Origin: an uncultured Chlamydiae bacterium
GTDB lineage: Bacteria > Chlamydiota > Chlamydiia > Chlamydiales > JAJFMA01
Length of the DNA: 64,000 nt
Direction of reading: 5' to 3'
Assembly: GCA_963713615.1 (NCBI GenBank)
Contig: CAVQMM010000001.1
Location: 1,536,001-1,600,000 of the forward strand
Made by a program: the position numbers and the translations under genes. Below, one piece after another: positions 3,107 through 40,998 of this stretch. Every line of letters begins with the position of its first letter. The first letter of the stretch is position 1. Under the pieces are notes generated by a model. It had not been told where the DNA came from and searched no databases. It saw only the letters and a program-made list of their open reading frames with translations.

Positions 3107-3266
3107 GGCCTTGTTCGGCTTTCCGGGCAGAATTTCGGTCAGGCGAGAGGTCCCAGATGCAGCAGTCGACGACGAGGGAATAGCGCTAGCTATTGCCGAG
3201 GAGGCGAATGCTGCAGATGGGCGCCTCGCAGCCGACCGAAAACTGCGCGAAAAGTCGAACAAGGCC
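3107..3266 (+). mobile_element. MITE family A (160 bp), copy 1
   Basis: GGCCTTGTTC...GAACAAGGCC termini, 8-bp TSD GAAAGGTA. Confidence 0.92.
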
Positions 3267-3318
3267 GAAAGGTAGCAGGAAGCCGAGGGAACTACCTAAT
3301 TGATCTGTATCATTTAAG

Positions 3319-3480
3319 GGCCTTGTTCACCTTTACGGTCAGAATTTCGGTCGGACGAAAAAGGTCGGATGTCGTGGTTTGTGACGAGGGCATAGCGCCA
3401 GCTATGTCCGAGGAGCAAAACGCGACAGACGATCCTTTTGCAGTCCGACCGAAATTCTGACCGCAAAGGTGAACAAGGCC
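3319..3480 (+). mobile_element. MITE family B (162-bp variant), copy 1
   Basis: GGCCTTGTTCACC...GGTGAACAAGGCC termini, 8-bp TSD CATTTAAG. Confidence 0.92.
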
Positions 3481-4095
3481 CATTTAAGTGAGTATCTAGC
3501 GGGAGCAGCAACGGCCTGGACTGAGGATATTAAAAGGAGACTCGAGCGCTAAAGACCCGCTTAAAAAAAGGACAGATAGTGAATGTGAAGCGAAAGCTTC
3601 GAAAGTACTCCAAAGTTCACCCTGAGCATGAGGGCCTGCAAAAGTGTATACAATACATAACTAATAGACCTGGGCAGTTTAAGTATGATGAAGCGATTAG
3701 AAAAGGTTTGCCAATAGGTTCGGGGAAAATAGAAAGCACGCATCGCCATGTGATTCAGAAGCGGTTGAAAAAGCCCGGAGCATGGTGGAGACGGGATCAT
3801 GCGGATCAAATGGCAAACCTTAGAACTCTTCGAGCTAACGATGAATGGGAAAGGCTTTGGCAAGATGAGGTAGTCTGTGAGCTCGATTGCCTAGCCGCCT
3901 AAGGTGAGTACAAATTTGAATTACACCCAGCATAACCAAAACGTGTCCGAAATCCGAATCTGCCCTTCTAGATAAGCGATGGCGCATACAACACAGCATC
4001 CTTGAAGACTAGGTTGAAGTCGTCTAACATATATCACGCGCGGTTAGATGAATTTAAACATCAGGTTTTATCCCATCACAGTCGAGGAGCAAAAA

Positions 4096-4557
4096 TTGAA
4101 TAACCCTGCAGTATATCTTGTAGGCCTTGTTCGACTTTTCGCGCAGTTTTCGGTCGGCTGCGAGGCGTCCATCTGCAGCATTCGCCTCCTCGGCAATAGC
4201 TAGCGCTATTCCCTCGTCGTCGACTGCTGCATCTGGGACCTCTCGCCTGACCGAAATTCTGCCCGGAAAGCCGAACAAGGCCATCTTGTAAACGCCTTGC
4301 GTCATGGATTCGTTAAGAGCATAGCCATCTTCATTGTAGTCGGTTTGATAACACCCCTTCAAGCAACTCACGAAACGGATGCTTGTAACTTAATCAAGAC
4401 AGTCCTTAACACAGACGGACCATTTACCACGAAGGTCCTTTCAGGTGGTCTGTCGGGTTCGGTCTTAATTAACGTTAATACGTCTGATCAGGCCTATATT
4501 GTTCGCTTTTGGAATATGCAATGGGTTGAATATTACCCTCAAGATTTAGCATTATAG
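4096..4557 (+). pseudogene. N-terminal remnant of a probable secreted phosphotransferase/kinase-like gene, interrupted by MITE A
   Basis: RBS GAGGAG then TTG at 4096. Removing the MITE and one TSD joins LNNPAVYLV to NALRHGFVKS...LSGGLSGS...YIVRF, an APH/choline-kinase-like N-lobe. The frame ends early. Confidence 0.45.
4123..4282 (-). mobile_element. MITE family A (160 bp), copy 2
   Basis: Reverse complement of 3107-3266 with about one substitution, 8-bp TSD ATCTTGTA. Confidence 0.92.
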
Positions 4558-4773
4558 AAACACCAGAAGTTCCGATAAAGAGCCACCTGAACTTTGGCCG
4601 CCACGGCTTAGAGACATCAAGTCCGGATGATTTTTATAAGTATGCTGTTTCCATCTTAAATGAAGTGATCGACTACTCATGCAGTGAACAGTATGCCAAC
4701 GACCTGGCGCTCTTGCAAAACCAATAAATGAGCTTTCGCGCTAGTCGAATGTGAAAAACCTACCTAAGTGTGG

Positions 4774-6654
4774 TTAGCCTCCGGCTTGCTTCCGCTGATC
4801 TAGCTTCTTTTGTCGTCTGTCTAAAACGCTCTTCATCTCACTCAACATCGTCTTTTCGAGAGAATTAAGCCCACCCTTTGTGTTTTGTCCATAGCGTTCA
4901 AATTGCTCTATAGCTCGTTCTGTCATATCACGTTTGAGGCGATTATAGGTTGGTTCTGGAAGAAGATGAAGCCACGTGTTAATCACTTTCTGGGTACAAG
5001 TGCCGGATTCCTGAGGTTTATGGTAATCAGCCGGATTGGTACTCGCAGGGTCTGGATGCCCAAATTCCTGTTTGAGTCTCCCATAAATCTTGCCGATTGC
5101 ATCTGTTGACACTCGCTGGTTAAAACGCAAAAGTTCTCTAATGAAGTGTGGATCTGTAACCTGCTGCTTGTCAAGACCACTCCATTGTAAATGAGTTTGA
5201 AACCTATCTCCTTGGCTGTGGTGAAAGCGTATACCTAAGCCTGTATTCAATACTGAAAAGGTATAAGTCCCGTCCGATGCTTTGTTCACTTTATACATCA
5301 TGGCATGATTGGGGATTCCGCCAGAAAAGATCACTCCGATTGGGTCATCAGCATGCTGTTTAATTTGTTCTACGACTCTGTCTGTCGCTCCCTCAAGTGC
5401 AAGTTTTTGCTCATCAAAACGTTTTAGGACCGTTGAGGCATTTTGGACCTCTTTTTTAGCCAATTCGACAACCTCTTGAGCTATAATCACAGGGGCATTA
5501 CGAGTATTTGAAATGGCTTGATTGAATAGTTCGGGGCTAAAGAAAGCACTTAAATCATAAAAGGGTCCATAAGGTGAAACGGCAGCTTCTTCAATAAAAG
5601 TATTCATTGCGGTAGGGCTTTGATTCAACGACACCGCTAAATTCAATAAACTCTTTTTAAAATCAAGGCCAAATTGTTTTGAGTTGTATAGCGAATTGAT
5701 AAATGCATGGTCTTCACCATTTTTTGCGTCATTTGCAAATTCCTTATCGAAGCTGCGACCGACTGTTGCCTGTGCCTCTTCAAGCCTTTTAGAGGCTTCC
5801 GTCAGATTGTGTGTAGCTTCAGCAAGCGCTTGATATGCTTTATCCGGATCGTCAGGAATGGACTGTTGACGTATGTATAAAAGATTCTCGGTTTCCGCAG
5901 ACCATTGAAGCTGATCACATACTCGTAAAAGTATCTCTCTATCCTCAGAACTGTAATTGCCTGTAAATCTGGGATCATTCAGAACCCCCTCAATGTCCTC
6001 TTTCATTCCCGCTTGTTGAAGCGCAGAGCTAAAGCCCTCTAATGCCTTTTCATTGCCTCTTATTTCCACATTTTCAGTGTGGTCCATACAACGGTGGAAC
6101 ATCAGGCTACGGACCAACCTGGGTTGGTTTAGGCGCAAATCCATTTTTTTGGGGAGGGACTTCTTAGAGTCCTCATAGATACTCTCTCCATCAACGTCGG
6201 CTTTAACTTTAGCTCTCATGTACTGCAAGGCATCGTGAATAAACTGCTGCGCATGGGCCAGATTTTGTCTTTCTGTTTTGTTTGCTTGCACTCCTAGGAA
6301 ATTCAGAACTCTATCGCTGAAAGCGAGCTGACTTTTGGCCGACATCGCGCGTAAGCCTTCGCTTATATTCTCTAACGCATTGCATCGAGCTGCCAGACTG
6401 CCCTCCTGCTTTCCCTTAAATTCATTTAAAATTTGTTGACTTTCGGAATGTACTGTTAATTTAATTACGATAGCGGAAATTTCACTAATCGATAACGCAT
6501 TTTCTTTATTAGATGTTACTGATATGGAATGACCATTAAAAACAATATTTTTACCAGTTTCCACTGATTCTTTTATTGCCTTACTCAATCCTATAAGATT
6601 AAATTCGTAATGACGGTCATCCATGGAATCAGAATTATGAAAAGTTTCTTCCAT
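4774..6654 (-). CDS. Putative secreted effector with cysteine-protease-like domain
   Basis: 626-aa ORF with motifs GGIPNHAMMY, LNTGLG and PQESGTC in His...Asn...Gln-x-x-Gly-x-Cys order. Confidence 0.7.
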   Translation of the reverse strand: MEETFHNSDSMDDRHYEFNLIGLSKAIKESVETGKNIVFNGHSISVTSNKENALSISEISAIVIKLTVHSESQQILNEFKGKQEGSLAARCNALENISEGLRAMSAKSQLAFSDRVLNFLGVQANKTERQNLAHAQQFIHDALQYMRAKVKADVDGESIYEDSKKSLPKKMDLRLNQPRLVRSLMFHRCMDHTENVEIRGNEKALEGFSSALQQAGMKEDIEGVLNDPRFTGNYSSEDREILLRVCDQLQWSAETENLLYIRQQSIPDDPDKAYQALAEATHNLTEASKRLEEAQATVGRSFDKEFANDAKNGEDHAFINSLYNSKQFGLDFKKSLLNLAVSLNQSPTAMNTFIEEAAVSPYGPFYDLSAFFSPELFNQAISNTRNAPVIIAQEVVELAKKEVQNASTVLKRFDEQKLALEGATDRVVEQIKQHADDPIGVIFSGGIPNHAMMYKVNKASDGTYTFSVLNTGLGIRFHHSQGDRFQTHLQWSGLDKQQVTDPHFIRELLRFNQRVSTDAIGKIYGRLKQEFGHPDPASTNPADYHKPQESGTCTQKVINTWLHLLPEPTYNRLKRDMTERAIEQFERYGQNTKGGLNSLEKTMLSEMKSVLDRRQKKLDQRKQAGG

Positions 6655-6906
6655 TACACGCCTATAGCAAACACATGCAAACTCCCATTGTTAATTATAT
6701 AACAACAGTATTTTTACAGTAAATAACTTATCTATTACAGAAAAACTTAACTACTATTTAGTCGGTCAATAAATGGCATGGAAGACATCAGCCTGTAGGC
6801 TCAACTTATCCCAAGTGGTATGAAGGACATTGAGAGGTACAAAATAGGTAAAACTTTAAAGAGCTACCTGATACTGTGATTGGATAACATTAACCTTAGG
6901 GGTGAC

Positions 6907-7362
6907 ATGACACATATAGATTTAACAGAGGCACAATTCGAAAAGCTACTAAGACTTGTCTATCTAGGTAACTGGGTCATCAATGCCCCACGCCCGGAAG
7001 AAGAAAGACTCGAAGACTATGAGTTAGTGATGGAACATCTCTTTAGCTATGCCAACAAGTTTGGCCTCTCAGAATTAGTTCAGCATGATGAGACTCGAGC
7101 TATTCCTAAGCCCGAATTTGAAGAAAATGAGGAAATGCGAACGTTTCTCAGTGACTACAGCGACCGATCCTTTTGGATGGAACTCATTGGACGCTTGGCT
7201 GAACTGGAGGCTATTCGGCAACATGGAGTCGAAGGTCTTAGCGCCATGGAACGCGTCGAACGTTTTGAACTCTTGATGGGCCTCCAAGAGGGACTCCGCG
7301 AGATCTTTTCAACGCAAGGTCTGGAGGCCATTCAGGTGACCCCAGAAGCATCGTCAAATTAA
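6907..7362 (+). CDS. Conserved hypothetical acidic protein
   Basis: ORF with ATG at 6907 after GGGGTG. The LLRLVYLGNWVINA segment looks like a real protein. Confidence 0.7.
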   Translation: MTHIDLTEAQFEKLLRLVYLGNWVINAPRPEEERLEDYELVMEHLFSYANKFGLSELVQHDETRAIPKPEFEENEEMRTFLSDYSDRSFWMELIGRLAELEAIRQHGVEGLSAMERVERFELLMGLQEGLREIFSTQGLEAIQVTPEASSN

Positions 7363-7393
7363 GCTCCTATTGAAGTATGTCCACACCATTGAA

Positions 7394-7442
7394 GGCACAG
7401 GCTTTACCCCTTCGGGCCTAGGAAGGGGTAAAAACCTGTGTC
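7394..7442. terminator. Hairpin between convergent genes
   Basis: GGCACAGG-TTTACCCCTTC...GAAGGGGTAAA-CCTGTGTC inverted repeat. Confidence 0.5.
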
Positions 7443-7549
7443 TCCAGGCCAGATAGTGCCATGCCATCTGAACTCTCTAAAAAGTAATCTTTTTTTCCCG
7501 AGAATCGATTCTATTAGCACAAAGCTAAAACGGCACCGAATATGTCTAA

Positions 7550-8473
7550 TCATAAATCATCGGCAAATCGCTTGATGAGATAGTTTGGAGAATCAAGAAC
7601 TGGAAGCGCGCTCAAAGCATTTTCCAGACCGTGATGAGCAATTCTATCCGCCATGATTCCCGTTTGAATCACCAGTGTGGAGGGCATACCAAATCGGCGT
7701 GCTCCCCTTATATCCGTCTCCGGGGTATCTCCGACCATTAAGATTTCTGATGGGTTCGTCACATCATACTTACGAAATTGATCCAATGCCATGGCATAGG
7801 CTTCGTTGTGCGGCTTACCTGTATAAAATACTTGGCCGCCCATTTCTTCATAAATTTTTGCGATGCTGCCCTGTCTTACTACGGCTCTGGGAGGGTTACC
7901 TTCATGTGCAAATTGGTCTGGATTAGGGCAAACCATGGGTAAATTTTTCGCCGCTATTCTTTCAATTTCTCCTCGGAATACTTCAGGATCTACCTGATCT
8001 TCACCTTCAATGTGCGGAATAGAAACGTAGATAAAATCCGCCTCATTGATGTCCGATGTTTCTAAATAGGTGGAATCTTTAAAAAGCGGTTCATGCGAGG
8101 AAAACCTAGGATGCACTCCACCAAACAGCCAAAATTTATTCGTGGGAGTTTTGAAGGGTAATTTGTCATTTAAAAAGACATCTCTTGCGATTTCCCCGGA
8201 GGTGATTAGGAAATGAAAATGCTCGCCATAAATCAGGCCACGAAGAAGAAATTTGCTTATTTCTTTAGAAGCTAACTGGGTAGAATTAGACAGAATTCCA
8301 ACGATTTTGCCACTAGCGACCAATTTCTTCATGATTTCGGTGGAGCCTGGCAGAAGGCCCACATCGTTACCTCCCCAAAAAACCCCGTAAGCATCAAGTA
8401 ATATGCCCTTGTAATTGTTCGAGATGAGTGTGATACCTGAGGAAATTTCAAGGGTGGCAGTCATGATAACCAA
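7550..8473 (-). CDS. HAD-superfamily class IIA hydrolase
   Basis: Motifs LLDAYGV, LSNS, GKP and MVGDTPETDIRGA. Confidence 0.9.
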   Translation of the reverse strand: MVIMTATLEISSGITLISNNYKGILLDAYGVFWGGNDVGLLPGSTEIMKKLVASGKIVGILSNSTQLASKEISKFLLRGLIYGEHFHFLITSGEIARDVFLNDKLPFKTPTNKFWLFGGVHPRFSSHEPLFKDSTYLETSDINEADFIYVSIPHIEGEDQVDPEVFRGEIERIAAKNLPMVCPNPDQFAHEGNPPRAVVRQGSIAKIYEEMGGQVFYTGKPHNEAYAMALDQFRKYDVTNPSEILMVGDTPETDIRGARRFGMPSTLVIQTGIMADRIAHHGLENALSALPVLDSPNYLIKRFADDL

Positions 8474-8539
8474 AGCTCCTTTTAAGCAGGTTGTGAAACA
8501 ACAATAGATAAAGGGCCGATTTTTTGAAAACGATATCGA

Positions 8540-8920
8540 TTAGGATTAGGATGAGGATTAGGAGTTAGGAATAACACGGATGCACACGGATCTAGGAGGA
8601 TTTAGGAGGATTTAGGAGGATTGGATGGCAAATATGGGCCTTGTTCACCTTTACGGTCAGAATTTCGGTCGGACGAAAAAGGTCGGATGTCGTGGTTTGT
8701 GACGAGGGCATAGCGCCAGCTATGTCCGAGGAGCAAAACGCGACAGACGATCCTTTTGCAGTCGACCGAAAACTGACCGCAAAGGTGAATAAGGCCCAAA
8801 TATGGTTCGTTTAGCTTTTTAGGAGCAACACGGAGTGCATCCGTGTTATTCCTAAAATCCCCACGAACCGTATCTACCATCCTATCCTCCTAAATCCTCC
8901 TAGATCCGTGTTACTCCTTA
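8540..8920. repeat. TAGGAGGA/ACACGGAT palindromic repeat cluster hosting a MITE
   Basis: ACACGGATCTAGGAGGATTTAGGAGGA on the left is inverted to TCCTCCTAAATCCTCCTAGATCCGTGT on the right. A second IR pair is TAGGAATAACACGGATGCAC / GTGCATCCGTGTTATTCCTA. Confidence 0.7.
8637..8796 (+). mobile_element. MITE family B (160 bp), copy 2
   Basis: GGCC termini, 8-bp TSD CAAATATG. Confidence 0.92.
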
Positions 8921-10021
8921 TCATTGGAGTTCGAGCAGATGAATGTCATAGCCTACCGTGGCTAAACGTTTTTTAAAGGGATGTATGGCCAAAACAGCTC
9001 CGCCTTGAGGGGATACTTTTTTATAGTCTGAAATCTGTAACGCATCATTTTTTATTTGACCGAACCATAGAAGGCCTTCTTGCGTACTACAAAGAAAGTG
9101 AATACTTTTCCCTTCGGCAATGCACCCGACATCAAAACTAAAAACCTGCTCCAAATTTTTATTCTCAATCAGATTTTTTGAATCCAAATAGACAAATCGA
9201 TTTTTTTCTATTCTGTATAGCCAGAGATTCCGGTCCCCCCTTCCCACTGCACAGTTAGAAAGAAGCAAGTAATCCCCAGAGATGAAGATGTGGTTAATCC
9301 CCCTTTTCGCTTCTTGATTATATCTTTGACGATGAAGAATCTTACCTTCTAAGAAATCGATCATACACAGGTCTCCATCCTCAGAAGATGTAATCACAAT
9401 TCCTTCCTTCCAGGGTAAGATGCTTCTAATGTTTCGTAGCTTATAAGGACTATCAACGGGGTGATCAGACTGTAGGGAGATAGAGGAGAGAAGGGATGGG
9501 CCTTCAGTGGAAAATTCCCAAGTAAGCACAAATCCTTCCGAATGCCCTGTTAGGAGAATGTGAGGACTCCCTGTCTTGAGGAATTTCGCACTGTCAACCG
9601 CTCCAAAACGACTGTCGAAATGGCATGTCTCTTTTAGGACATATCCTTCGTTGTTTCGTTCCCAGAGAGTGAATGAAGAACGACCATTCGATGAAACAAA
9701 TGCGTCATCATTGATTCTCTCCAACATGGTGATTCCTTGCTTTATAGGAGGCACAAGGACTTGCTGAATGGAGAGTATGTCTTCACAATCAAAAACAGTA
9801 ATTGTTCCGTCCCACCTGCCTACCGCTAATTTATTTTCATTCAACCAAGTCGCTGACTGCGCAAGATTTGTAATGGTCGATAAAGCTTTAAATTGAGTAG
9901 CCTTAGCACCGCTGTCAAAAGCGACAAGGGGGGCTATCTGGAAGAAAGCAAGGGCAACCAGAACAAAAAGGAAGCAGGATTTTTTATGACTGAATGCGTT
10001 CATGTCGTCGATGATGTCCAT
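8921..10021 (-). CDS. Secreted WD40/beta-propeller protein
   Basis: Signal-like N-terminus and WD-like blades (LAVGRWDGTITVFD, LLTGHSEGFVLTWE, VITSSEDGDLCMID). Confidence 0.7.
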   Translation of the reverse strand: MDIIDDMNAFSHKKSCFLFVLVALAFFQIAPLVAFDSGAKATQFKALSTITNLAQSATWLNENKLAVGRWDGTITVFDCEDILSIQQVLVPPIKQGITMLERINDDAFVSSNGRSSFTLWERNNEGYVLKETCHFDSRFGAVDSAKFLKTGSPHILLTGHSEGFVLTWEFSTEGPSLLSSISLQSDHPVDSPYKLRNIRSILPWKEGIVITSSEDGDLCMIDFLEGKILHRQRYNQEAKRGINHIFISGDYLLLSNCAVGRGDRNLWLYRIEKNRFVYLDSKNLIENKNLEQVFSFDVGCIAEGKSIHFLCSTQEGLLWFGQIKNDALQISDYKKVSPQGGAVLAIHPFKKRLATVGYDIHLLELQ

Positions 10022-10163
10022 TACTGTCCATATTTGTCCATTCCTAAGTCCGTCCTTTCGCGTCGAGTCTGTTGCTTTCGAATATTTTATCTAGCGAAAT
10101 GCCTGGCTGATATGGTACTAGGGGATAAAGTAAAGCGGCTATCCTAGTAAGAGGAGGAAATTA

Positions 10164-12269
10164 ATGGATGTGAAATTGTGGCCAGGTCATCCATATCCTT
10201 TGGGAGCTACCTACGATGGCTCTGGGACTAACTTCTCTATCTTTTCTGAAAGAGCTGAACGGGTAGAACTATGCCTTCTTGACGACAACGGAAATGAGAC
10301 ACGCGTTGACCTACCTGAAGTGACCGGTTACTGTTGGCACGCCTATCTACCTAAGGTAAAATCTGGTCAACGCTATGGATATCGGATCCACGGACCATGG
10401 GATCCCGCCAATGGTCAACGCTTTAATCCAAACAAGCTTTTGCTAGACCCTTACGCCAAATCCATCAATGGACAGATTCAGTGGAACGAAGCTTTATTCC
10501 CCTATCACTTTGGCAAAAGTCCTGACGAAAAAAATAATTTAAACAGTGCTCCTTTTATGCCTCATTGTGTGGTCCATGAGCCCTTTTTTGATTGGACCGG
10601 TGACAACAAATTGCAGCACCCTCTGCAGCAAACGATTATTTATGAGGTTCACGTCAAAGGCTTTACAGCCACCCATCCAGAAATCCCCCCAGAACTGCGA
10701 GGGACCTATGCGGGGCTTGCACATCCAGTAGCCCTTGAATACCTCAAGAAGTTAGGCGTCAATGCTGTGGAGTTAATGCCCATTCATAGTTTTGTTCATG
10801 ACAAATTTCTCATAGAACGTGGCTTAAGAAACTATTGGGGTTATAATACCATCGGTTTTTTTGCGCCTCATGCCGAATATTCTTCCGATAAAGCTCCCAG
10901 TGGAAGCGTACCCGAATTTAAGGAAATGGTGAAAAAACTCCATAGAGAAGGGATCGAAGTCATTTTAGATGTGGTCTATAACCACACGGCGGAAGGGAAT
11001 CATATGGGCCCTATGCTGAGCTTCAAGGGAGTTGACAATGCGTATTACTACCGCCTGACAAACGATGCCCGCTACTATATGGATTATACTGGTACGGGAA
11101 ACAGCCTGAACATGCGTAATCCCCATGTTCTTCAAATGCTGATGGATTCGTTGCGCTATTGGATTTTGGAGATGCATGTGGATGGATTCCGTTTTGATTT
11201 GGCATCAACCTTGGCAAGAGAGCTTCACGATGTGGACAGGCTTTCAGCATTTTTTGACCTCATTCAACAAGATCCCGTCATCAGTCAAGTCAAACTCATT
11301 GCGGAACCATGGGATGTCGGAGAGGGGGGATATCAGGTAGGAAATTTTCCACCGTTATGGTCGGAATGGAATGGAAAATATCGGGACTGCGCAAGGGATT
11401 TTTGGCGGGGAGAAAATCAAACGCTAGGAGAGTTTGCTTCTCGGTTTACTGGCAGTTCGGATCTCTACCGTAGCAATTCTAGACTTCCCTCTGCGAGCAT
11501 CAACTATATCACGGCGCATGATGGATTCACTTTGAACGACTTAGTTTTCTATAACGGCAAGCACAACGACGCCAACAAGGATAACAACAATGATGGGGAT
11601 AATACAAACCGTAGTTGGAACTGCGGTGCTGAAGGTCCATCAGATGATCCTAATGTGATCAATCTACGAAACCGCCAAAAGCGAAACTTCTTAGCTTCTT
11701 TGTTTCTTTCACAGGGTACACCGATGTTGCTTAGTGGGGATGAGATGGGGCGCACCCAAAGGGGCAACAACAATGCCTACTGTCAGGACAATGAGATCTC
11801 GTGGCTAAATTGGCAAACTGTTGACGAAGATCTCCTCGAATTTACAAAAAAACTCATCCACTACAGAATCGATCATCCCGTGTTTCGCAGAAGACGCTGG
11901 TTTGAAGGGCATCCCCTCCATGATTCGGAATTGCGCGATATCGAATGGTTTAATACCGAAGGTAAGACCATGGCGTCGGAGGATTGGGGAAAAGGCTTCG
12001 TGAAGTCTCTGGGAGTCTTTTTAAATGGTAAAACGATTCCGAATCCAAATCCTCGCGGAGACACAGTTGTTGACGATGATTTTTACGTCATTTTTAACGC
12101 TTCAGAGAAGGATTTGGAGTTTACCCTCCCCTGCAAGCAATGGAGCGATCAATGGGTGAAAGAGCTTGATACCTCTAAAGGGTGGTTGGAAGAAGAACAA
12201 ACTCTAAAGGCTGAAGAAAAACTGCAAGTCCCAGCTCGAAGCTTAGTGGTCCTACGTCATGCCTCCTAA
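10164..12269 (+). CDS. glgX: Glycogen debranching enzyme GlgX/TreX (GH13)
   Basis: Motifs YPLGAT, NYWGYNT, DVVYNHT, DGFRFDLA, IAEPWD and HDGFTL. RBS GAGGAGG. Confidence 0.96.
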   Translation: MDVKLWPGHPYPLGATYDGSGTNFSIFSERAERVELCLLDDNGNETRVDLPEVTGYCWHAYLPKVKSGQRYGYRIHGPWDPANGQRFNPNKLLLDPYAKSINGQIQWNEALFPYHFGKSPDEKNNLNSAPFMPHCVVHEPFFDWTGDNKLQHPLQQTIIYEVHVKGFTATHPEIPPELRGTYAGLAHPVALEYLKKLGVNAVELMPIHSFVHDKFLIERGLRNYWGYNTIGFFAPHAEYSSDKAPSGSVPEFKEMVKKLHREGIEVILDVVYNHTAEGNHMGPMLSFKGVDNAYYYRLTNDARYYMDYTGTGNSLNMRNPHVLQMLMDSLRYWILEMHVDGFRFDLASTLARELHDVDRLSAFFDLIQQDPVISQVKLIAEPWDVGEGGYQVGNFPPLWSEWNGKYRDCARDFWRGENQTLGEFASRFTGSSDLYRSNSRLPSASINYITAHDGFTLNDLVFYNGKHNDANKDNNNDGDNTNRSWNCGAEGPSDDPNVINLRNRQKRNFLASLFLSQGTPMLLSGDEMGRTQRGNNNAYCQDNEISWLNWQTVDEDLLEFTKKLIHYRIDHPVFRRRRWFEGHPLHDSELRDIEWFNTEGKTMASEDWGKGFVKSLGVFLNGKTIPNPNPRGDTVVDDDFYVIFNASEKDLEFTLPCKQWSDQWVKELDTSKGWLEEEQTLKAEEKLQVPARSLVVLRHAS

Positions 12270-15232: not shown

Positions 15233-15402
15233 CTTGGGAAGAATTGGGGCGCTTTGGAATCACAATCGTCAATCGGCGCGAAGCGCTTTGGAGCCCCAAC
15301 CGACTGCGTCGCCAATATCCGAAAGTAACGCTAAAAAAGAATTAGGAATTTTCACCGCCGAGTGACGATTGTGATTCCAAAGCGCCCCCAATTCTTCCCA
15401 AG
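15233..15402. repeat. CCAAAGCG palindromic repeat element
   Basis: About 47-bp inverted arms CTTGGGAAGAATTGGGGCGCTTTGGAATCACAATCGTCA / TGACGATTGTGATTCCAAAGCGCCCCCAATTCTTCCCAAG. Confidence 0.8.
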
Positions 15403-15417
15403 CACCTAAGATTTTGC

Positions 15418-15997: not shown

Positions 15998-16053
15998 GGC
16001 CTTGTTCACTTTTGCAGTCGACCGAAATTCTGACCGCAAAGGTGAACAAGGCC
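15998..16053 (+). mobile_element. Internally deleted MITE family B (56 bp)
   Basis: Both GGCC ends retained, 8-bp TSD CTTTTTAG, centre deleted across a CTTT microhomology. Confidence 0.85.
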
Positions 16054-16156: not shown

Positions 16157-16316
16157 GGCCTTGTTCACCTTTACGGTCAGAATTTCGGTCGGACGAAAAA
16201 GGTCGGATGTCGTGGTTTGTGACGAGGGCATAGCGCCAGCTATGTCCGAGGAGCAAAACGCGACAGACGATCCTTTTGCAGTCGACCGAAAACTGACCGC
16301 AAAGGTGAATAAGGCC
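16157..16316 (+). mobile_element. MITE family B (160 bp), copy 3, without matching TSD
   Basis: Identical to 8637-8796, but the flanks TCAATTAT and GAAAGGAG differ. Confidence 0.92.
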
Positions 16317-23361: not shown

Positions 23362-23379
23362 TAAAAACCTCTGATTTTG

Positions 23380-23739
23380 GGTTCTTGGGAAGAATTGGGG
23401 GTGCTTTGGGGTCATAATCGTCAGTCGGCGCGAAGCGCTTTGGAGTGCGGTCGCTCGCGACCGCTTTGGATTTGGGCGAAGTTGGCATTGCAAGAAACGT
23501 AACCCTTCTCTCTAGGGGTAACTGTGTGTGTGGGGGCAGCCTCCGTAGAACGGTGCGCGATTCAATAGGCTCGCCCAAATCCAAAGCGGTCGCGAGCGAC
23601 GCGCACTCCAAAGCGCTGCGCGCCGAGATACGATTGTGAGGGCGCAGTTAGTTGCTTAAGTTGATGCCTATGACTCCAAAGCGCTGCGCGCCGAGTGACG
23701 ATTGTGATTCCAAAGCGCCCCCAATTTTTCCCAAGAACC
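23380..23739. repeat. Composite CCAAAGCG/GCACTCC palindromic repeat element
   Basis: Same outer arms as 15233-15402, plus an inner IR GCGCTTTGGAGTGCG...CGACCGCTTTGGATTTGGGCGA / TCGCCCAAATCCAAAGCGGTCG...CGCACTCCAAAGCGC. Confidence 0.8.
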
Positions 23740-23897
23740 TGATTTTGCAAGAACTTTAATGGGACAGTTGGTTTGTAAGCCAGAAAATAAATCGCCACCG
23801 CATGCGGTGTCTTGGGATAAAATAATTGTTGCAAAACGGGTCACTAAGAGGGCAATAGTGAGGTCGAGAGGTTGCTGGAATTTAGTGAAGGACCACG

Positions 23898-30902: not shown

Positions 30903-30911
30903 TCCATTAAA

Positions 30912-31224: not shown

Positions 31225-31271
31225 AAGTAAATTCCAAATTCTTGCCCCACTTTTTAAGGTAGAGTATTCAC

Positions 31272-32279: not shown

Positions 32280-32410
32280 AGAAATCTGAGCTCCAATTCA
32301 AAGAGGATATCAGGAACTGCGATCTCATAAGGGAGTCGAAAAATAACTGAGGTCAAATTGCCATCTTCGATATCGATAAGAATGTTAGCATCGCTAATGA
32401 CTAAAAGCAT
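32280..32410 (-). pseudogene. Truncated PIN-domain protein (toxin-like)
   Basis: MLLVISDANILIDIE...IAVPDILFELEL is a PIN N-terminus that then runs into unrelated sequence. It overlaps the upstream gene. Confidence 0.65.
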
Positions 32411-33461
32411 GTGACTTTTGCACCTGACGAAGAGCTTTTAATTGAGTAAGAGAACAGGACAACAGTTCTGCGGCTTTTGGTTCCCCAATATATTCTTCAC
32501 CGAGGGCATGAAACAGCATTTGGTTAAAGGCACGATCTTTTTCTGAAGGAATTTCTATCCCCGGCTCTTTGCGATGCCATCCCTTCTGTCGAAAACGAAT
32601 GATGAGGCTTTTGTAGTAGGATTCTTGAATGATTGCCAAATCTTTAAGACGATAGCAAATCGCTCCCATGCTCAATTGAAACTGTTCTTTGAGAAGAAGA
32701 AGTTCCTGCCATTCAATAGCTCGACGCTCTTTTCCCACCACTTGAAACACAGCTTCACGCGGAAATAGAAAAGCACCTGCAAATCGATTGCAAGCCTGCT
32801 CTTCATCTAATTTGGAAGAAAGACGATTAATAAAAATATAGTGAGCGAGTTCGTGAGCTAGATTGAAACGTTGTCGATCGCCAGGCCATCTGGAGCTAAT
32901 CACTATAATTGGTTGATCATTGATGACAGTAGAAAGACCGTCAAAATGCTCTTCATCAGTGTTAATAATAAACACTCTTATGCCATGACTTTCTAAAGCA
33001 TCAATAAGATCGTGAATAGGAGCTAAACCCAGTTTCCAATGATTACGGAGCATTTCAGCAATTGACTCTATCTCTTCAAGACTATTAACTATCTGAGGAA
33101 AATCAGCTGGAAGTTTAAATGTCGGTAAAGGAGAAACCGGATAAAGATTCTCTAATTCTAAACGACGCTCGATTTGACTGATTACTTCAAATTTAATTGC
33201 TTCTTCAACTTTTCCATTCATTTTTTTTCGTTTTCGAAACTTTACACTTTCAAGGGAGACTTTGATTGGACGAAAAAAGAAATCAACACAAACTTTCAAT
33301 GCTCTCGCTAATTTTATGAGCATGTCCGAAGAGGGGTAAACATCTCCATCTTCATATTTTTTAATAGCGGCATGCCTCAAATGCACGAGATCAGCAAGTG
33401 CGCGTAAGCTTAAACCAGCAGCTTTTCTCGCTTGTTGGAGTCGAATGCCTAGGTTACTCAT
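32394..33461 (-). CDS. XRE-family HTH plus ImmA/IrrE (M78) metallopeptidase
   Basis: N-terminal HTH (RLQQARKAAGLSLRALA), RQRFNLAHELAH and E..CNRFAGAFL. Confidence 0.9.
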   Translation of the reverse strand: MSNLGIRLQQARKAAGLSLRALADLVHLRHAAIKKYEDGDVYPSSDMLIKLARALKVCVDFFFRPIKVSLESVKFRKRKKMNGKVEEAIKFEVISQIERRLELENLYPVSPLPTFKLPADFPQIVNSLEEIESIAEMLRNHWKLGLAPIHDLIDALESHGIRVFIINTDEEHFDGLSTVINDQPIIVISSRWPGDRQRFNLAHELAHYIFINRLSSKLDEEQACNRFAGAFLFPREAVFQVVGKERRAIEWQELLLLKEQFQLSMGAICYRLKDLAIIQESYYKSLIIRFRQKGWHRKEPGIEIPSEKDRAFNQMLFHALGEEYIGEPKAAELLSCSLTQLKALRQVQKSHAFSH

Positions 33462-33589
33462 ATAGGTGCCTAAATTTATAGATTTCCTTTACAGTTTACA
33501 TTACAACAAAAAATACATATTTTGTAAACCAGACACCTTTGCAACCCTTCAAACAGGAGAATTTCCCTATGAACGTCTTTGAGAGATTG

Positions 33590-34134
33590 ACTGTCCGATC
33601 TTTTCCTGGAACCCCTTCCCCTGTTGCCAGCAGACGTTCCGTTTCAAGACGAGAATAGGTGTTTCCCTCCAAACGACTGGAATTCCAAGATAGATCAATC
33701 AAAAGTCGCTGATAAATGTTTCTGGCAGATGTTCCTGCGGGACGCCCCCTTTCTGATCCAGATCCTAACTTTAATAATTTTTCAAGAATCGCCTGCGATA
33801 AGTAGAATGTGTCAAATGATCATGCAGAATGACCCACTTGGCGGTCACCAAGTGGGTCATTCTGCATGATCATTTGACAGAATGTTCTATTTGGCTCATA
33901 CGAATCTAAAATTCCCTTCGATAGCTTACGTGTCGTCGCAATTGAATTGGAGTAGATATGAGTCTACGCAATTCCTCTCCCTCTTCTGAGAGCGGAATTC
34001 TAAAGGTAGCTTGTGGTACCTCAACACTTTCTAATGCTGGCTGTTCTAAATTTTTGTTGAGATAATATTTACTATTTCTACCTGCACCATCAAGTCTTAA
34101 TACCCCTGATTTAACAAGAATGGATAGCCTATAC
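33590..34134 (-). pseudogene. Fic-family protein, fragmented
   Basis: After removing the 70-bp palindrome and one frameshift it reads YRLSILVKSG...FLDSYEPNRTFYL...PAGTSARNIYQRLLIDLSWNSSRLEGNTYS. The Fic catalytic motif region is absent. Confidence 0.75.
33810..33879. mobile_element. 70-bp perfect-palindrome mini element (IS21-like ends), copy 1
   Basis: TGTCAAATGATCATGCAGAATGACCCACTTGG-CGGTCA-reverse complement, 5-bp TSD GAATG. Confidence 0.8.
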
Positions 34135-35497
34135 CAGGGAAATTGCATGAAGAAATGATTTGACTATTTTTCAAATTGTTGCGACTACTTCTCCTTTTCA
34201 TCAGGGAGATGTATAATGTCACAACAACATGCAGTCAGAGAAACTTCTATCATGCTCGCGTTTTCAATCCTACCAGATCCTCGTAAGGCAAGAAACCAGG
34301 CCTACAGTGTCTCCGAGATCGTATCGATCGCCATCCTCGCTATACTTTGCGGGGCTGATGATTGGGTAGAGGTTAGCTTATGGTCTGAGTCTAATCTTGA
34401 ATGGTTACACGAGCTTCAAATGTGTTCTGATGGTGTCCCTTCGCATGACACTTTCTCGCGCTTTTTCCGCTTTGTCAACCCACAGGCGTTTGAGCGGTGT
34501 TTTATTAACTGGACTCAGCATATTGCCAAAACGATAGGTGGCATCATCGCTTTGGACGGCAAAACCTTATGCAACTCTTCCGATACGACAAATGATGTAA
34601 GAGCCATTCATATCGTGAGTGCATTTTCAGCGGAAAATCAACTTGTTCTAGGGCAGCTTGCAACAGAGCTAAAATCCAATGAAATCACTGCTTTTCCCTT
34701 GCTTCTTGCCATGCTCGATATTAGGGGTGCTACAATTACAGTGGATGCCGGAGGATGTCATAGGCCACTTGTTAAGCAGATCGTGGAGCAAGGAGGAGAC
34801 TACGTGATAGGTCTAAAAGGGAATCAAGGACATCTACATGCTGAGGCTCAAAACTTTTTTGAGCAAGTGGTTGAAGGTCTACCGGAAGCCAGTGGTTGTG
34901 ACTTTTTTGTGAGCGAAGAAAAGTCGCGAGGACGAGTTGAGAAACGAGAAGTTTGGGTATGTGAAGATCTTGAGTGGCTACCACAAAAAACAGAATGGAC
35001 AGGTTTAAGGAGTCTTGCCGCAGTTAGGAGTACAAGAACAATTAAGGGTGTAACTTCAACAGAAACACGGTTTTACATATCCAGCCTCTCGTCCGATGCG
35101 AGGAAAATGGCCCATGCGATACGCTCTCATTGGACAATTGAGAACCAGTTGCACTGGCAGCTAGATGTATCCTATGCAGAGGATGGATGCAAAGTAAGAA
35201 AAGATTGTACGGCGACAGCGATGATGGCACCTCGGCGACACGCAGTTGGCACCTTCCATCACCGCCCGGCGTCAGCGAGTTGGCACCTTCCATCACCGAC
35301 TGACGACAACCTCCTGGCACCTCCTCCATCACCGACCCGCGACACGCGGTTGGCACCTCCCATCACCGCCCGACGACAGTCGGTTGGCACCTAAAAACAG
35401 GCCAGAATCACCCGGGCCCAGATCCTTCTCGTCTGAAGTCCTTCCAGCCCGGTCCATACCCGCAGGGCGAGTATGGACCATCTGTTCTAACTTCTTC

Positions 35498-35830
35498 TCA
35501 GATCACTGGATCGTCTCCGATAGTCTTTCTAGTGCTACCCTCCAGAGCCTCCAAGTCTTCCTCCAATTTTGCATGAAAGGCATAGATCTGTTCCAGATAT
35601 TCTGCAACAAGTTCTCTAAAACGTCTACGTAGATCTTCCTCCAAGCCAGCTACTAGGGCCAATAGCTGAAAAATCCCTTCTCGCACCTCTAAAGATGGGG
35701 CCACATAAGTCCTGTCTCCACTTAGGGCGTTTTCTATTGAGCTATCGGCTCTACGCTCAAGCTCAGCCACCGCATTTCGTAAATCCTCAACCAAAGCCCT
35801 ACTGAGAAGTATTTCTGAATGATGTTTCAT
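35498..35830 (-). CDS. Hypothetical helical passenger protein within IS21
   Basis: ATG at 35830 with RBS GAGGT immediately after istB; 110 aa, acidic and helical. Confidence 0.6.
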   Translation of the reverse strand: MKHHSEILLSRALVEDLRNAVAELERRADSSIENALSGDRTYVAPSLEVREGIFQLLALVAGLEEDLRRRFRELVAEYLEQIYAFHAKLEEDLEALEGSTRKTIGDDPVI

Positions 35831-35832
35831 GT

Positions 35833-36657
35833 TTACCTCGAATCTTGTATTTCTTGATTCATGCAAGTACTCAATGTTTTCGCCCGATCCTGGTCGGTCA
35901 CACTGGCTCTTGCTTTAGCTGACAAGCTGTTCCTGCGATAACTTTCGCCGTTGATCTGGATAATTTGAGCGTCATGTACCAGCCTGTCTATTGCGGCCAC
36001 CGCCATAGCTTTATCTTGAAATATGTTGGTCCATTCACTGAATGGCTGATTACATGTTATGATCAGGCTCTTTCGCTCATATCGCTCTGAGATCAGCTCA
36101 AAGAGAACATTTGTTTCCATGAGATCCTTGTTGGCATAGCCAAAATCGTCTAAAATCAAACAATCATATTTATCCAGCTTTGCTAGCGTTGTCGGTAGCG
36201 TCAGGGCCTGTTTTGAGGCTTGAAGCCTTTGAATGAGCTCGGTGGTACGCATGAACAAAACACGGAACTTGTGCTCTAAGAGTCCCGCTCCAATTGCAGC
36301 TGCCAGATGTGTTTTACCAACTCCTGAGGGGCCAAAAATCAGAATGTTTCTGCCCTCGCGTAGCCAGTTCCCACCTGAGGCTAATGTACAAATCAACGTC
36401 TTATTGAGCGATGTCACTTTGAAGTCGAAGTCTGTAAGTGTTTTACCTAGGGGCAGGCAGGATTCCTTCAGGTGCCTGATCATACGACGATCCGTTCTTC
36501 CTGTTAATTCGTGTTCACACAAGACTTTCAGGCATTTGGCGCTTCCCCACCCTTCAAGGTCCGCTTGATGACTCATTTCTTCCCACAAAGCGGCCATTGT
36601 TGGCAGGCGAAGCTGCTTGAGTAGTATCGGTAGTACTGCTTCTTCTTTTGTAACCAT
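35833..36657 (-). CDS. istB: IS21 helper ATPase IstB
   Basis: Motifs GPSGVGKT, LILDDFGY and DRLVH. Confidence 0.95.
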   Translation of the reverse strand: MVTKEEAVLPILLKQLRLPTMAALWEEMSHQADLEGWGSAKCLKVLCEHELTGRTDRRMIRHLKESCLPLGKTLTDFDFKVTSLNKTLICTLASGGNWLREGRNILIFGPSGVGKTHLAAAIGAGLLEHKFRVLFMRTTELIQRLQASKQALTLPTTLAKLDKYDCLILDDFGYANKDLMETNVLFELISERYERKSLIITCNQPFSEWTNIFQDKAMAVAAIDRLVHDAQIIQINGESYRRNSLSAKARASVTDQDRAKTLSTCMNQEIQDSR

Positions 36658-36673
36658 GAATCTTCTCCTAAAT

Positions 36674-38170
36674 TTATAATGTGGCGTGCTTTAACAGCTC
36701 GTCGTATGAGCCAAGATCGTGTTGTTCAATCTCTACCAGAGGGACAACGTGCTTCGCTTCCTTAAAGTGTTGCTGTAGCTCTTCAAAGCTTGGTATGCGT
36801 TGCTCGTTTAGTGCCTTTCGAAGCTCGGCTGCAATTTGTTGCTGGTGACCGTCTGCAGCCAGCTTTAAGATCCTCACCATTTCCTTACATGCCATACGCT
36901 CATCAAGCCGCGCATCCAGTAACACCCAAGCCTGGCGAAATTCATCGCTGGGAAATAAATCATCTCTAAAGATGTAGTGTCGAAACGCTTGAGGCTTGCG
37001 GACAAGCTCAGGAATGACATGGCGATAGTCGATGTTTCTTGGGCGAGGACCCGTCTTGCTCCAACGTAATCGCGGAAAAGTAATGATATGAGAGGCTGCA
37101 TGAAAACACTCTAATCGGTCGTCATGAACGTGTACCGTTAACGTATGACCTATCAAGCGCGAAGGCACTGCATAATATGCCTGTCGTACGGTTATGATGC
37201 CCGTGGTAGGAACACCGACGTTTTCTATATCGTGACTGCCTACCTTATGTTTTGGGAGAGGCTTTAGGTGCTTTCGTTCTTCAGCTACTTCAGCCTGACG
37301 TCGCGAATTGTCACTTTTAACAATTTCATCGACAAAGTTTCGATACTCTTGCAGTGAGGAAAAGTCTCTAGAACCCCTCAGGCGCAGCTTTTGATCGATT
37401 TTATTTTTAAGATGTCTGTGCGAACTTTCAATACTGCCATTTTCATGCTTTACTCCTTTATTGTTTCGCGTGGGCTTTACATCATAGTGTGCGCACATTT
37501 CATTGTACGCGTTTGTAAGGTCCTCTCTTGCTGATTCATTTAGATTTTTATATGCCGCTGAAAGACTATCGGTACGATGGGTTTCAGGTACCCCACCTAG
37601 CTCCCATAACGCATTTTGAAAACCTGCAGAGAGAGCTACATGGGACTCTCCTCCCAGAATGACAAAGGCATATGCCCAGCCGCTGAATGGAACCCTGAAA
37701 TGATACAGCAAATGAGGAAGCGAAGTACCCTCTATTGTTACATGCAGTTCATCGCAGTTGGTAAAGTCAGAAATGCCCTGAAAACCGGGAGGGTGGTTTT
37801 GCCGAAAGATCCGTTCCTTCTCCCTTCCATGGAGTGCTTTCCATTGCCGAACCCTTCTTTGTAGGGTTCTAAGTAGGCTGTCGGGATATTCCTGTGGATA
37901 GCGTTCCTGGAGATCCCGCATTAAGGTAATGGGCGTTAGGAACGGATCTCTTTCCAACAGGGGAACGAACTCGGTCCTCCAGACTTTCGCGAAGGGGTCT
38001 GATGAAGATCCAGATTTGGAGCGATACTCCTTGATATGAGTGCCTTTCTCGAAGCGCTTAGCGCTTCGCGTACTAATACCCGCTTTGGCAGCGGCAGTGG
38101 CCTGCATGCTGCCACCGTTTCTAATTTGCATATACAACCTCAATTGTTCTTTCGTAATTCTATTTGACAT
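36674..38170 (-). CDS. istA: IS21 transposase IstA
   Basis: Motifs LRTLQRR, SDFT, HRTDSLSA and HENGSIE. Confidence 0.95.
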   Translation of the reverse strand: MSNRITKEQLRLYMQIRNGGSMQATAAAKAGISTRSAKRFEKGTHIKEYRSKSGSSSDPFAKVWRTEFVPLLERDPFLTPITLMRDLQERYPQEYPDSLLRTLQRRVRQWKALHGREKERIFRQNHPPGFQGISDFTNCDELHVTIEGTSLPHLLYHFRVPFSGWAYAFVILGGESHVALSAGFQNALWELGGVPETHRTDSLSAAYKNLNESAREDLTNAYNEMCAHYDVKPTRNNKGVKHENGSIESSHRHLKNKIDQKLRLRGSRDFSSLQEYRNFVDEIVKSDNSRRQAEVAEERKHLKPLPKHKVGSHDIENVGVPTTGIITVRQAYYAVPSRLIGHTLTVHVHDDRLECFHAASHIITFPRLRWSKTGPRPRNIDYRHVIPELVRKPQAFRHYIFRDDLFPSDEFRQAWVLLDARLDERMACKEMVRILKLAADGHQQQIAAELRKALNEQRIPSFEELQQHFKEAKHVVPLVEIEQHDLGSYDELLKHATL

Positions 38171-39021
38171 CCTAACTCTCGCTTAAGTTTGGGGACGTCA
38201 GCATTCTAAATGCTCTCTTGCAAGCTCCCAAGAAAGGACTGAAAGATTTGAGGGATTGGGCCGTTGATTCTGGCCTGTTTTTAGGTGCCAACCGACTGTC
38301 GTCGGGCGGTGATGGGAGGTGCCAACCGCGTGTCGCGGGTCGGTGATGGAGGAGGTGCCAGGAGGTTGTCGTCAGTCGGTGATGGAAGGTGCCAACTCGC
38401 TGACGCCGGGCGGTGATGGAAGGTGCCAACTGCGTGTCGCCGAGGTGCCATCATCACTGTCGCCGTACAAAAAGATAATGGGGCGGAAAATTTTTCCGTG
38501 CTTCGACGGGCCACGCTAAATATTTTAAAGGCAGATAAAAAGACAAAGGCAGGGATTAAAAATCGCCGTTCGAAAGCAGGGTGGAACCGTGGCTACTTAT
38601 TGGGGTTGCTTGGCGTAAACTAAATTCTTCATGCAATTTCCCTGAGTAGGATATCGATTAATAATTGAGTTCGATCTTTCATTTTCCAATAAACTTAAAC
38701 AAATAATGGATATAGTGAGTAAATATGACGATCATTATTGCTTCGATCGCAGATTCTATAATTATATCGGCACTGATTTTTTGTCCAAAAAACATGCTCT
38801 TATGGGCCCTCCCTTCAGGAAGAAAATGGCTTCAGGAGTGAGTACTATCTGCTCTGGGGAAACAAAATGCCGTTTTAATTATGGTGGATTGCGCGCAAAA
38901 AAAATATTTAAATCCATCGCGGAAATATAGACAATCACTGATTATTTGCATAACCATTACAATTTCAACGATCTTATATTAATTTTATCAAATGAATTAT
39001 CCATTAGTCCCGCTCTAATCG

Positions 39022-40455
39022 TTATATCAGAAGGTGGCTGAAATCGATGACTTTATCGAAGTAATTCTCTTCTAAAACGCTGTCTTCCACGCCGTTCACA
39101 TGAATCAAAACCGGCCTGATTGAAAAGTGCCTAGGAACTTTCAACCGTTTTCTCTTTTCTTCCATTTCTTCAAGGATTTTTTTCCCGATCTTATCTTTTT
39201 TAAACTTGACCTCGCATAAATAGAGGGTATGGAAACGGGTTTGAATCATATAGTCGAGTTGGCATCCCGGCTGTTTTGTTGTCGGGCTTTGAAAAAAAGG
39301 CCCATCCATAACTACCATCTCAGCCGAAACATTCAGCATCTCCCAAAGAGTCTTATAGTTATGCGTAACAAGGTTTTCAAACTGCAATCCCATGACCACT
39401 TCCCAGTTGGGAAAATTATTTAGCATCGACTCCGGCACTTTCCCTTGTTCAATTTTGACTTGGTTTGGGCCAATGTATTTCAGATAGAAGCGCAAATAAT
39501 TATCGCTCAAACGATAACGACTCAACTTCCCATATTTTCCGCTCTTCAGGTCCCATGTAAAATCCCTTCTTACAAAACCAGCCTTCACCAATTCATCCAG
39601 ATACTGGCTGTATAAACCTCCTTGGCTTTTGCCAAGCTCTTTGCAAATTTGAGTAAGCTCTTTAGGCCCACTGGCAAGGCAGGTTACGAGTTCTTTATGG
39701 CTTCCTTTGCGGCGGGAAAAAAGATCTGAGAATATTTCATCGAATTCCCGTACAAGCAGGCCTCCCTTTGCAAAACAGAGCTCTCGAATATTCTGTTCCG
39801 CAGATAGATCTGGCTTGATCCGCTCCAAATAGAATGGCACTCCTCCGGTTACAGACAAAACTTTGAATTTTTCATAGGCTGTTATGCGTGTTTCTTTAGG
39901 ATGCCAGAATGCATTGCATGATTGAAGAGGCAGTTCGTCGAGAACCATATCGATCATGATTCTTCCAAGGAATCCCGTATTGCTGAGAATATTCTTTTCG
40001 ATCCAAGAAGAAATCGACCCGCAAAGAGCAAAAATCAAATGAGGATTCTTGCTGAAATACATATCCCAAGCAGTTTTTAAATGGCCTAAAAATTCAGAGT
40101 CTTTTCCGCCCATCCAGGAAATTTCATCAAACACAATAAGCACCCGCCCTTTTTGGGTGTGCTTGGAAAGATGCCAGAGGATATTCCCCCAATCGTCCGG
40201 CTGGATCCCGGGAATCCCGTTTCTTTCGAGCTGCTTCACAAAGACATCGCGCTGCGATTGCGCTGTTGTTTTACGGGCTGGCGGATTTCCAGAAAAGAAC
40301 AAGCTCTTTACTTCCTTGCCGAATTCGGCCAGCAGCCTGCTTTTCCCGATTCTTCTTCTCCCTCGCACTACAATGAGGCTCGCGCTTCTAGTGCTCAATA
40401 AGCCTTTGAGCCTTGCCATTTCGGCTTCGCGACCGATGAATTGAGCTGTTTTCAT
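39022..40455 (-). CDS. AAA ATPase (archaeal-ATPase type) with C-terminal PD-(D/E)XK-like DUF234 domain
   Basis: Motifs FIGREAE, GRRRIGKS, FDEISW, GGVP.YL and QLD...LCEVKF. Confidence 0.85.
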   Translation of the reverse strand: MKTAQFIGREAEMARLKGLLSTRSASLIVVRGRRRIGKSRLLAEFGKEVKSLFFSGNPPARKTTAQSQRDVFVKQLERNGIPGIQPDDWGNILWHLSKHTQKGRVLIVFDEISWMGGKDSEFLGHLKTAWDMYFSKNPHLIFALCGSISSWIEKNILSNTGFLGRIMIDMVLDELPLQSCNAFWHPKETRITAYEKFKVLSVTGGVPFYLERIKPDLSAEQNIRELCFAKGGLLVREFDEIFSDLFSRRKGSHKELVTCLASGPKELTQICKELGKSQGGLYSQYLDELVKAGFVRRDFTWDLKSGKYGKLSRYRLSDNYLRFYLKYIGPNQVKIEQGKVPESMLNNFPNWEVVMGLQFENLVTHNYKTLWEMLNVSAEMVVMDGPFFQSPTTKQPGCQLDYMIQTRFHTLYLCEVKFKKDKIGKKILEEMEEKRKRLKVPRHFSIRPVLIHVNGVEDSVLEENYFDKVIDFSHLLI

Positions 40456-40838
40456 GGAATTCTCCCGAATTTTAGTCACATTATATATTTTTTTGGATAA
40501 CAAATCAATCTACAAATGGTAAAAATGTCGATTTGCAGATGTTTTTTTGGATTCAAAAACACGGCAACAAACGGCATATTTTGCTTTTTGCGGATGAATT
40601 TTTTCCTTTCGAAATTAATCTGTAAATCTGCAAAATCACCTTTTGCGGATGATTCTTCTGTGAATTCCAAGTGTTTGAGAGAATCATTCGAATAGAATCG
40701 CCAGCAACCTGGAAAAACAGAACATCTATACATAACCCAAATTTTCGGATGCTAAATTTGCTACCTACCTAAAAATTCCTTGGGGTTCCTAGCTTGGATG
40801 AGTTTCATAATCTTTTTGGTGAATCCCTAGCTCCTAAT

Positions 40839-40998
40839 GGCCTTGTTCACCTTTACGGTCAGAATTTCGGTCGGACGAAAAAGGTCGGATGTCGTGGTTT
40901 GTGACGAGGGCATAGCGCCAGCTATGTCCGAGGAGCAAAACGCGACAGACGATCCTTTTGCAGTCGACCGAAAACTGACCGCAAAGGTGAATAAGGCC
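40839..40998 (+). mobile_element. MITE family B (160 bp), copy 4
   Basis: Identical to 8637-8796, 8-bp TSD CTCCTAAT. Confidence 0.92.

Follow-up and report, generated by a model that had tools for sequence, protein, structure and literature searches.

The 64,000-nt stretch of DNA analysed here (the window) comes from an uncultured Chlamydiae bacterium (assembly GCA_963713615.1, contig CAVQMM010000001.1, positions 1,536,001 to 1,600,000) and carries six copies of two families of MITEs (miniature transposable elements with inverted repeats), A and B. Repeat positions refer to the window unless they carry a prefix, and G000 denotes the genome that holds it. The six copies proposed in an initial annotation are all present (Table 1), and five of them are flanked by exact 8-bp target duplications, the exception being the copy at 16157. 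Our main finding is that the interior of these elements is a portable module that is carried by unrelated mobile elements, is conserved and strand-specific, and is predicted to fold on one strand only.

A search of the whole genome (3.97 Mb, 99% complete) returned 129 end-paired matches of 158-163 nt, with an exact 8-bp duplication at 109 and a duplication with one mismatch at 4 more. After removal of one spurious and one unoriented match, 127 oriented copies remained (114 B and 13 A). Genome-wide, 80 B copies and 10 A copies are identical, and the copies are dispersed and contain no transposase gene. A and B are real MITEs of type II, with terminal inverted repeats, target duplications, many near-identical copies and ends, though not the interior, in common with an autonomous insertion sequence (IS). 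Resident copies decay freely after insertion, as indicated by 29 pair-breaking changes, and at least five B copies carry multi-base changes that homogenise one arm to the other. Open frames in the MITEs occur at chance level (2.21 against 2.17 in shuffled sequences) and the frame was retained in 12 of 24 insertions into open reading frames (ORFs); an in-frame coding repeat of the RPE kind was ruled out since open frames are not kept beyond chance.

Several individual insertions were also recorded. In-frame B insertions (160+8 nt, or 56 codons) occur in apparent protein genes at G000:C1:227376, 384250, 2974747 and 3263872, two of these being transposase genes. A 5.3-kb segment (G000:C1:3502697-3508041) is bracketed by two B copies that share one 8-bp flank and is possibly a tandem duplication or a composite unit. 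Core-less elements of 54-67 nt, like the one at 15998-16053, recur in the genome, some of them with perfect 8-bp duplications, and arose either by deletion after insertion or through movement of elements that already lacked the core.

Families A and B differ at 45 of 160 positions, and these differences had been described as paired, which is borne out by the comparison. Among the 64 pairs of a rod set by hand, 15 show compensatory changes, 3 show wobble changes and 3 are broken or mismatched, and 8 differences are located at unpaired positions. Two-sided pair changes number 16 against a null mean of 5.3, a value not reached in any of 100,000 random placements. Neither the tandem GA loops nor the GACGAG/CGAGGAG core differs between the two families, again as first reported, and the interior of family A has a folding z-score of -8.1 as RNA and -7.1 as DNA. 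A covariance model (R1) was built from 20 of 48 distinct module sequences. With relatedness among the sequences ignored, as also in the shuffle control, 85.8% of the cells in this training set of 20 are paired, against 30-43% in slid controls, with two-sided changes at 32 of 41 pairs; for 28 new matches, in an alignment fitted to the model, the corresponding values are 86.7% and 41 of 41 pairs.

The fold is asymmetric with respect to the two strands. On the strand with the G·A tandems (the G·A strand), the arm mismatches in 46 homologues (the 48 minus two truncated sequences) are AG 181, GT 123, AC 48, GG 30, AA 28, CC 9, CT 8 and TT 5. The G·A strand is the better folder in 45 of the 46 with RNA energies and likewise in 45 of 46 with DNA energies, and among the model matches in 26 of 27 (RNA) and 24 of 27 (DNA). 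Covariation in both sets of homologues, together with purine-purine and G·T mismatches confined to one strand, agrees with the initial proposal that selection acts on the single-stranded interior and not on the ends alone. Some of the compensation may have arisen in single events, since arms have been copied onto each other in at least five B copies, whereas the one-strand asymmetry of the mismatches persists despite such copying. The tips of A and B both read GCGNNAGC. Among the homologues, tetraloop tips closed by C are GNNA in 7 of 15 cases (5 GNYA and 2 GNRA) and never UNCG, and triloop tips are ANC or ANA in 12 of 17; the stability of ANC and ANA triloops in DNA was not used as evidence.

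In its layout the core is a symmetric loop with a double G·A tandem, not the canonical kink-turn that had been read from it. As in a kink-turn, there are tandem G·A and A·G pairs in an internal loop, but the 3-nt bulge and the Watson-Crick C helix that should follow it are lacking. In a register test on the 46 homologues, the first three flanking pairs were standard in 28 sequences in the symmetric register versus 2 in the kink-turn register, and a scan with a general kink-turn consensus identified none at the A or B core and one among the 48 homologues. Furthermore, the single pair between the GA tandems has changed from C-G to G-C in 4 of 28 homologues, with both tandems kept in at least three of these. 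A gene of the L7Ae family (PF01248), the type of partner that had been suggested, was not found in the 99%-complete genome, while the family was detected in 7 of 14 control genomes.

Table 1. MITE copies, module segments and related features in the window.
Feature	Position	Strand	Remarks
ISKra4-like transposase pseudogene	2643..3902	+	received the MITE insertions 3107 and 3319
MITE family A copy, 160 nt	3107..3266	+	8-bp target duplication GAAAGGTA
Portable interior module of copy 3107	3131..3243	+	outer GA/GCA loop, mid-stem tandem GA, double tandem GA core, 9-bp tip stem
Core GACGAG-N3-ATAGC-loop-GCTAT-N3-CGAGGAG	3171..3203	+	one C-G pair flanked by two tandem G·A pairs; symmetric, lacking a 3-nt bulge
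Tip of copy 3107, GCGNNAGC	3183-3190	+	DNA mini-hairpin according to the available text of PMC13037366
MITE family B copy, 162-nt variant	3319..3480	+	duplication CATTTAAG; right arm homogenised to left
MITE family A copy	4123..4282	-	duplication ATCTTGTA
MITE family B copy	8637..8796	+	duplication CAAATATG
Core-less B derivative by internal deletion, 56 nt	15998..16053		both ends kept, 8-bp duplication CTTTTTAG
MITE family B copy	16157..16316	+	no target duplication
MITE family B copy	40839..40998	+	duplication CTCCTAAT

The interior module, about 110 nt in length, was found between many different ends. A third family, C, in the same genome has the identical core type between GGTAC ends with 6-bp duplications, and the same core is also enclosed by other ends in genome G003. 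MITEs of family C are located at G000:C1:191205-191363 and 1795356-1795515. The exact core pattern was identified at no fewer than 73 loci in the 35 of 64 parts of the GTDB genomes that were covered, where the core is invariant because the search pattern fixed it; judged by record titles, with bin labels being fallible, these belong to chlamydiae and to four other phyla, with Anaerolineae/Caldilineae, one Acidobacteria bin, Pseudomonadota and Actinomycetota. Within the phylum, the covariance model has matches in 34 of 101 genomes, with none in the 25 genomes of family f37. The 28 new model matches have varied ends and duplication lengths, and most of the end-bounded elements are about 135-170 nt long. 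The interior is thus a module of its own that is portable among unrelated mobile elements. Neither the core nor the end pattern was matched in viral contigs, no module match was obtained in plasmid and phage records, and the E. coli K-12 chromosome contains no match to R1. Likewise, the window gave no hit to Rfam at gathering thresholds, only chance-level matches at E up to 10.

The module is also present inside full-length insertion sequences of the IS982 family. An intact IS982 in G003 contains two differing versions of it, one just inside each end, with their G·A strands reading inward, and the same inward pairs were identified in 2 of 30 further IS982 loci (G367 and G281); the other 28 have no clear paired module, with four weak single matches among them. 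The three module-bearing elements (L209:5-1179, L247:755-1903 and L251:1214-2378, with approximate ends) are 1,149-1,174 bp long and resemble the rest of the family in having normal ACCC ends and transposases that pass the NF033520 cut-off. They differ by the two inward modules, nothing like which is described in the available text of PMC7335449, a text in which the transposition mechanism of IS982 is considered unresolved. Their transposases group as one clade (100/100) in a tree of 25 proteins; they come from three host families and sit on long end branches (about 0.7-1.0 changes per site), marked as uncertain by the tree tool. In genome G112, 20 doublets with the same inward geometry were listed and one was inspected: it has 393 bp between ACCC ends (G112:C6:14748-15140; L168:1249-1641). 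In this 393-bp element, whose ends are of the IS982 type, an AT-rich spacer separates two modules of opposite orientation.

Families A and B are likely moved by a DDE-type transposase with a DUF6399 domain that is encoded in the same genome. A 1,883-bp IS (G000:C1:1035800-1037682; L021:2001-3883) has A/B-type ends, an 8-bp duplication and a single ORF of 559 aa, for which DUF6399 is the only strong family match. A second copy of this IS, at G000:C1:3024579-3027573, is interrupted. Homologues of the protein numbered 1,563 at E<=0.001 among 7,992 scored, and most of the 120 matches listed come from contigs roughly 2 kb long, as would be anticipated for a repeated element. In an alignment of 60 sequences, the residues D166, D221 and E473 never vary, and they would constitute the catalytic triad. 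In the predicted structure (pLDDT 80), an RNase H-like core is interrupted by a helical insertion, which is shared with the best structural matches, Hermes of the hAT family and ISCth4 of the IS256 family. These families generate 8-bp duplications, as does the DUF6399 IS. The protein differs from them in that the matches are weak (E 0.002-0.07, identity 9-14%) and in that none of the NCBIfam transposase families matches it. From the alignment and the structural model we infer that it is a DDE transposase that moves A and B, which supports the annotation of DUF6399 as a transposase domain; a literature search, with subscription journals outside its coverage, returned no paper on DUF6399. IS1595, suggested as a partner by the GGCC ends and 8-bp duplications, was rejected for want of a PF12762 match in the genome. 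The module itself is absent from the 1,883-bp IS and, a neighbouring MITE aside, from the ends of the DUF6399 IS at 18 of 23 loci fetched, and A and B have therefore likely acquired it from elsewhere.

The folding strand follows the direction of replication and not that of neighbouring transcription. With replichores of this genome assigned from GC skew, the G·A strand coincides with the lagging-strand sequence for 91 of the 123 copies on the chromosome (P=1e-7; 83 of 110 for B and 8 of 13 for A). The target composition predicts 47-48% on the leading strand. Between co-directional genes, copies are antisense by 28:9 where the genes are on the leading strand and sense by 13:5 where they are on the lagging strand, and behind gene 3' ends, 26 are sense and 28 antisense according to rough ORF calls. 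No strand bias was seen in ten other IS or repeat families or in the DUF6399 IS, in small samples of 1-29 copies each. For other genomes, the strand was assigned from the skew of the 20-kb flanks, which was correct in 169 of 195 test windows, and G112 (doublets) and G094 (short contigs) were excluded. In the second of two such sets, 40 of 59 copies have the same direction; the set consists of 19 regions from five near-complete genomes (23 hits), 12 of 31 from G040, 17 of 25 from G107 and 11 of 13 from G125. The bias varies by genome, with 11 of 12 in G040, and when both sets are pooled, 52 of 79 copies from 13 genomes have the same direction (P=0.007). In small shares of the contigs from two peat metatranscriptome runs, a single contig runs across a B copy, located at another site, and is informative on neither strand, ends nor transcription.

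One hypothesis, which we tentatively prefer while placing it somewhat short of an even chance, is that the module is a signal in single-stranded DNA that is selected on the element itself rather than an RNA. The element would be unwound, most plausibly at the replication fork, and its G·A strand would then form a rod, with sheared G·A pairs in the loops and a mini-hairpin at the tip, for a conserved host protein to read. The partner strand, with its C·T and A·C mismatches, would be a poor folder, so that no cruciform would arise. Copying or retention would favour variants with an intact fold, and such selection in cis would explain the conservation across transposase families. The identical young copies, together with free decay after insertion, suggest selection on the transposing lineage, most simply in cis on the DNA. 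According to the available text of PMC13037366, GCGNNAGC is far more stable in DNA than in RNA, is poorly bound by SSB and is present at single-strand priming sites. The arm-homogenising variants in B also fit with pairing of the arms at the DNA level in vivo. The one-strand mismatches, the replication-linked orientation in this and other genomes and the GNNA tips are counted in favour of this hypothesis as well.

Several observations weigh against the single-stranded-DNA hypothesis. DDE transposases act on double-stranded ends, and we know of no single-strand step for the transposase families involved here. G·U wobbles and tandem GA pairs are equally typical of RNA, the difference between the strands is larger with RNA energies (-16 vs -7 kcal/mol), many tips are not GNNA, and the E-values in the fold search for the DUF6399 protein all exceed 0.001. 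As for the orientation, the first set of outside copies was not significant (12 of 20 in the same direction, with 20 of 22 matches fetched), G107 shows a weak bias (9 of 17) and G101 the opposite one (0 of 2), and asymmetry is present in the target site as well (81 of 105), a count that is partly circular. The bias could also be a by-product, if a strand-specific fold is deleted faster from the lagging template.

A bolder extension of the single-stranded-DNA hypothesis, which we regard as speculative and rather unlikely, is that the module is a transposase-independent end signal shared across phyla, in which folded single-stranded DNA recruits a conserved host factor of replication or repair. 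It would have been captured by unrelated DDE insertion sequences and would explain how certain MITEs of about 160 nt out-multiply their parents. If true, this would represent an undescribed host-dependent step in bacterial transposition.

A close rival, which we rate only somewhat lower, is that the module is an RNA insulator or processing signal. A host transcript entering an element end would carry the G·A strand, fold, and then be cleaved or stop the polymerase; this would protect the transposase gene or make the element less costly for the host, and the replication bias would be a side effect. The G·A strands that read inward in the three intact IS982 elements and the 20 doublets of G112 correspond to the strand of an incoming transcript, and these pairs may thus fit a shield against incoming transcription nearly as well as they fit a signal in single-stranded DNA. 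The strong fold as RNA points in the same direction, and there are precedents: the available texts describe a terminator at the left end of IS200 that acts against impinging transcription (PMC4513863), and processing of Correia and ERIC transcripts by RNase III and RNase E (PMC10969869). Against an insulator are the lack of a sense bias near genes in this genome (26 vs 28), terminator-like sites that are not in excess in the IS982 elements tested (1 vs 1.3 expected) and the rarity of RNA-type tetraloops among the tips.

We consider it improbable that the module has no function at all, with a symmetry and apparently compensatory changes generated by template switching or arm conversion and a core that is shared by inheritance. 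The arm-homogenising events in B and the free decay of resident copies are what such a process would leave behind. Yet copying of the arms would erase mismatches, and on one strand the loops with G·A and the G·T pairs are still there even though the stem sequences are wholly replaced between phyla. The IS982 elements with paired modules also retain two diverged versions, one at either end, despite the long end branches of their proteins. The remaining alternative, that of the initial annotation, in which a mobile structured RNA contains a kink-turn bound by an L7Ae-like protein, can be drawn for family A alone (C-GAC-GA-G opposite C-GA-G) and is largely refuted by the missing C helix, the negative scan of the A and B cores, the covarying central pair and the missing PF01248 gene, leaving it a very slim chance.

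Other features in the window were noted in passing. Tandem 156-nt repeats at 915-1471 are located within an ORF of 376 aa (883-2013, minus strand) with no Pfam match, and another palindromic repeat family (CAAAGCGCCCCC) is present at 15236-15412, 23374-23740 and 489-540, with about 29 matches on the chromosome. The segment 34135-59690 is a dense mobile region with an ISAs1-type element, IS21, three IS66 copies and a Y1 transposase-like gene, and is followed by a DarT and macrodomain pair at 60022-61752 and an IS1634 at 62523-63977.

Among known systems, the rod fold with a tandem GA beneath the tip stem is also seen in a repeat upstream of E. coli lpd, which we take to be of the ERIC type; it differs in having a single instead of a double GA tandem and in not matching R1. 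The single-strand origins and DNA mini-hairpins described in the available texts (ssoA with its CS-6 motif, the G4 origin and Streptomyces telomere hairpins; PMC10378824, PMC8860593, PMC13037366, PMC5449611) resemble the module in being strand-specific imperfect hairpins, in the GCGNNAGC tip of A and B and in the TAGCG at the tip, which is similar to CS-6. An origin of the ssoA type was rejected, since CS-6 (TAGCGA/T) is not conserved, being exact in 7 of 48 and 2 of 28 homologues, and no Rep gene or double-strand origin was seen.

The closest relatives in kind are the type II MITEs, such as Correia/NEMIS, Nezha, Chunjie, QMITE2 and bcr1, which according to the available texts (PMC10969869, PMC3184786, PMC5896051) are likewise short and non-coding, with inverted repeats that match an IS, target duplications and an end-to-end fold, and with compensatory changes reported for bcr1. 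None is described in these texts with an interior module common to several transposase families or phyla, nor with a fixed double tandem G·A core or a bias for the replication strand. No published description of the module was found by title and abstract, with the same coverage of journals as above, and the MITE census of PMC11602168, to judge by its available text, may contain these elements as unnamed clusters. The old question of what the fold of a MITE does, as DNA or as RNA, can now be tested with small constructs, and our findings serve as a warning that, in repeats of this kind, "RNA motifs" supported by covariation may in fact be signals in DNA. The interiors of MITEs are usually deemed filler; in the elements studied here, conservation lies in the interior, while the ends can be exchanged.

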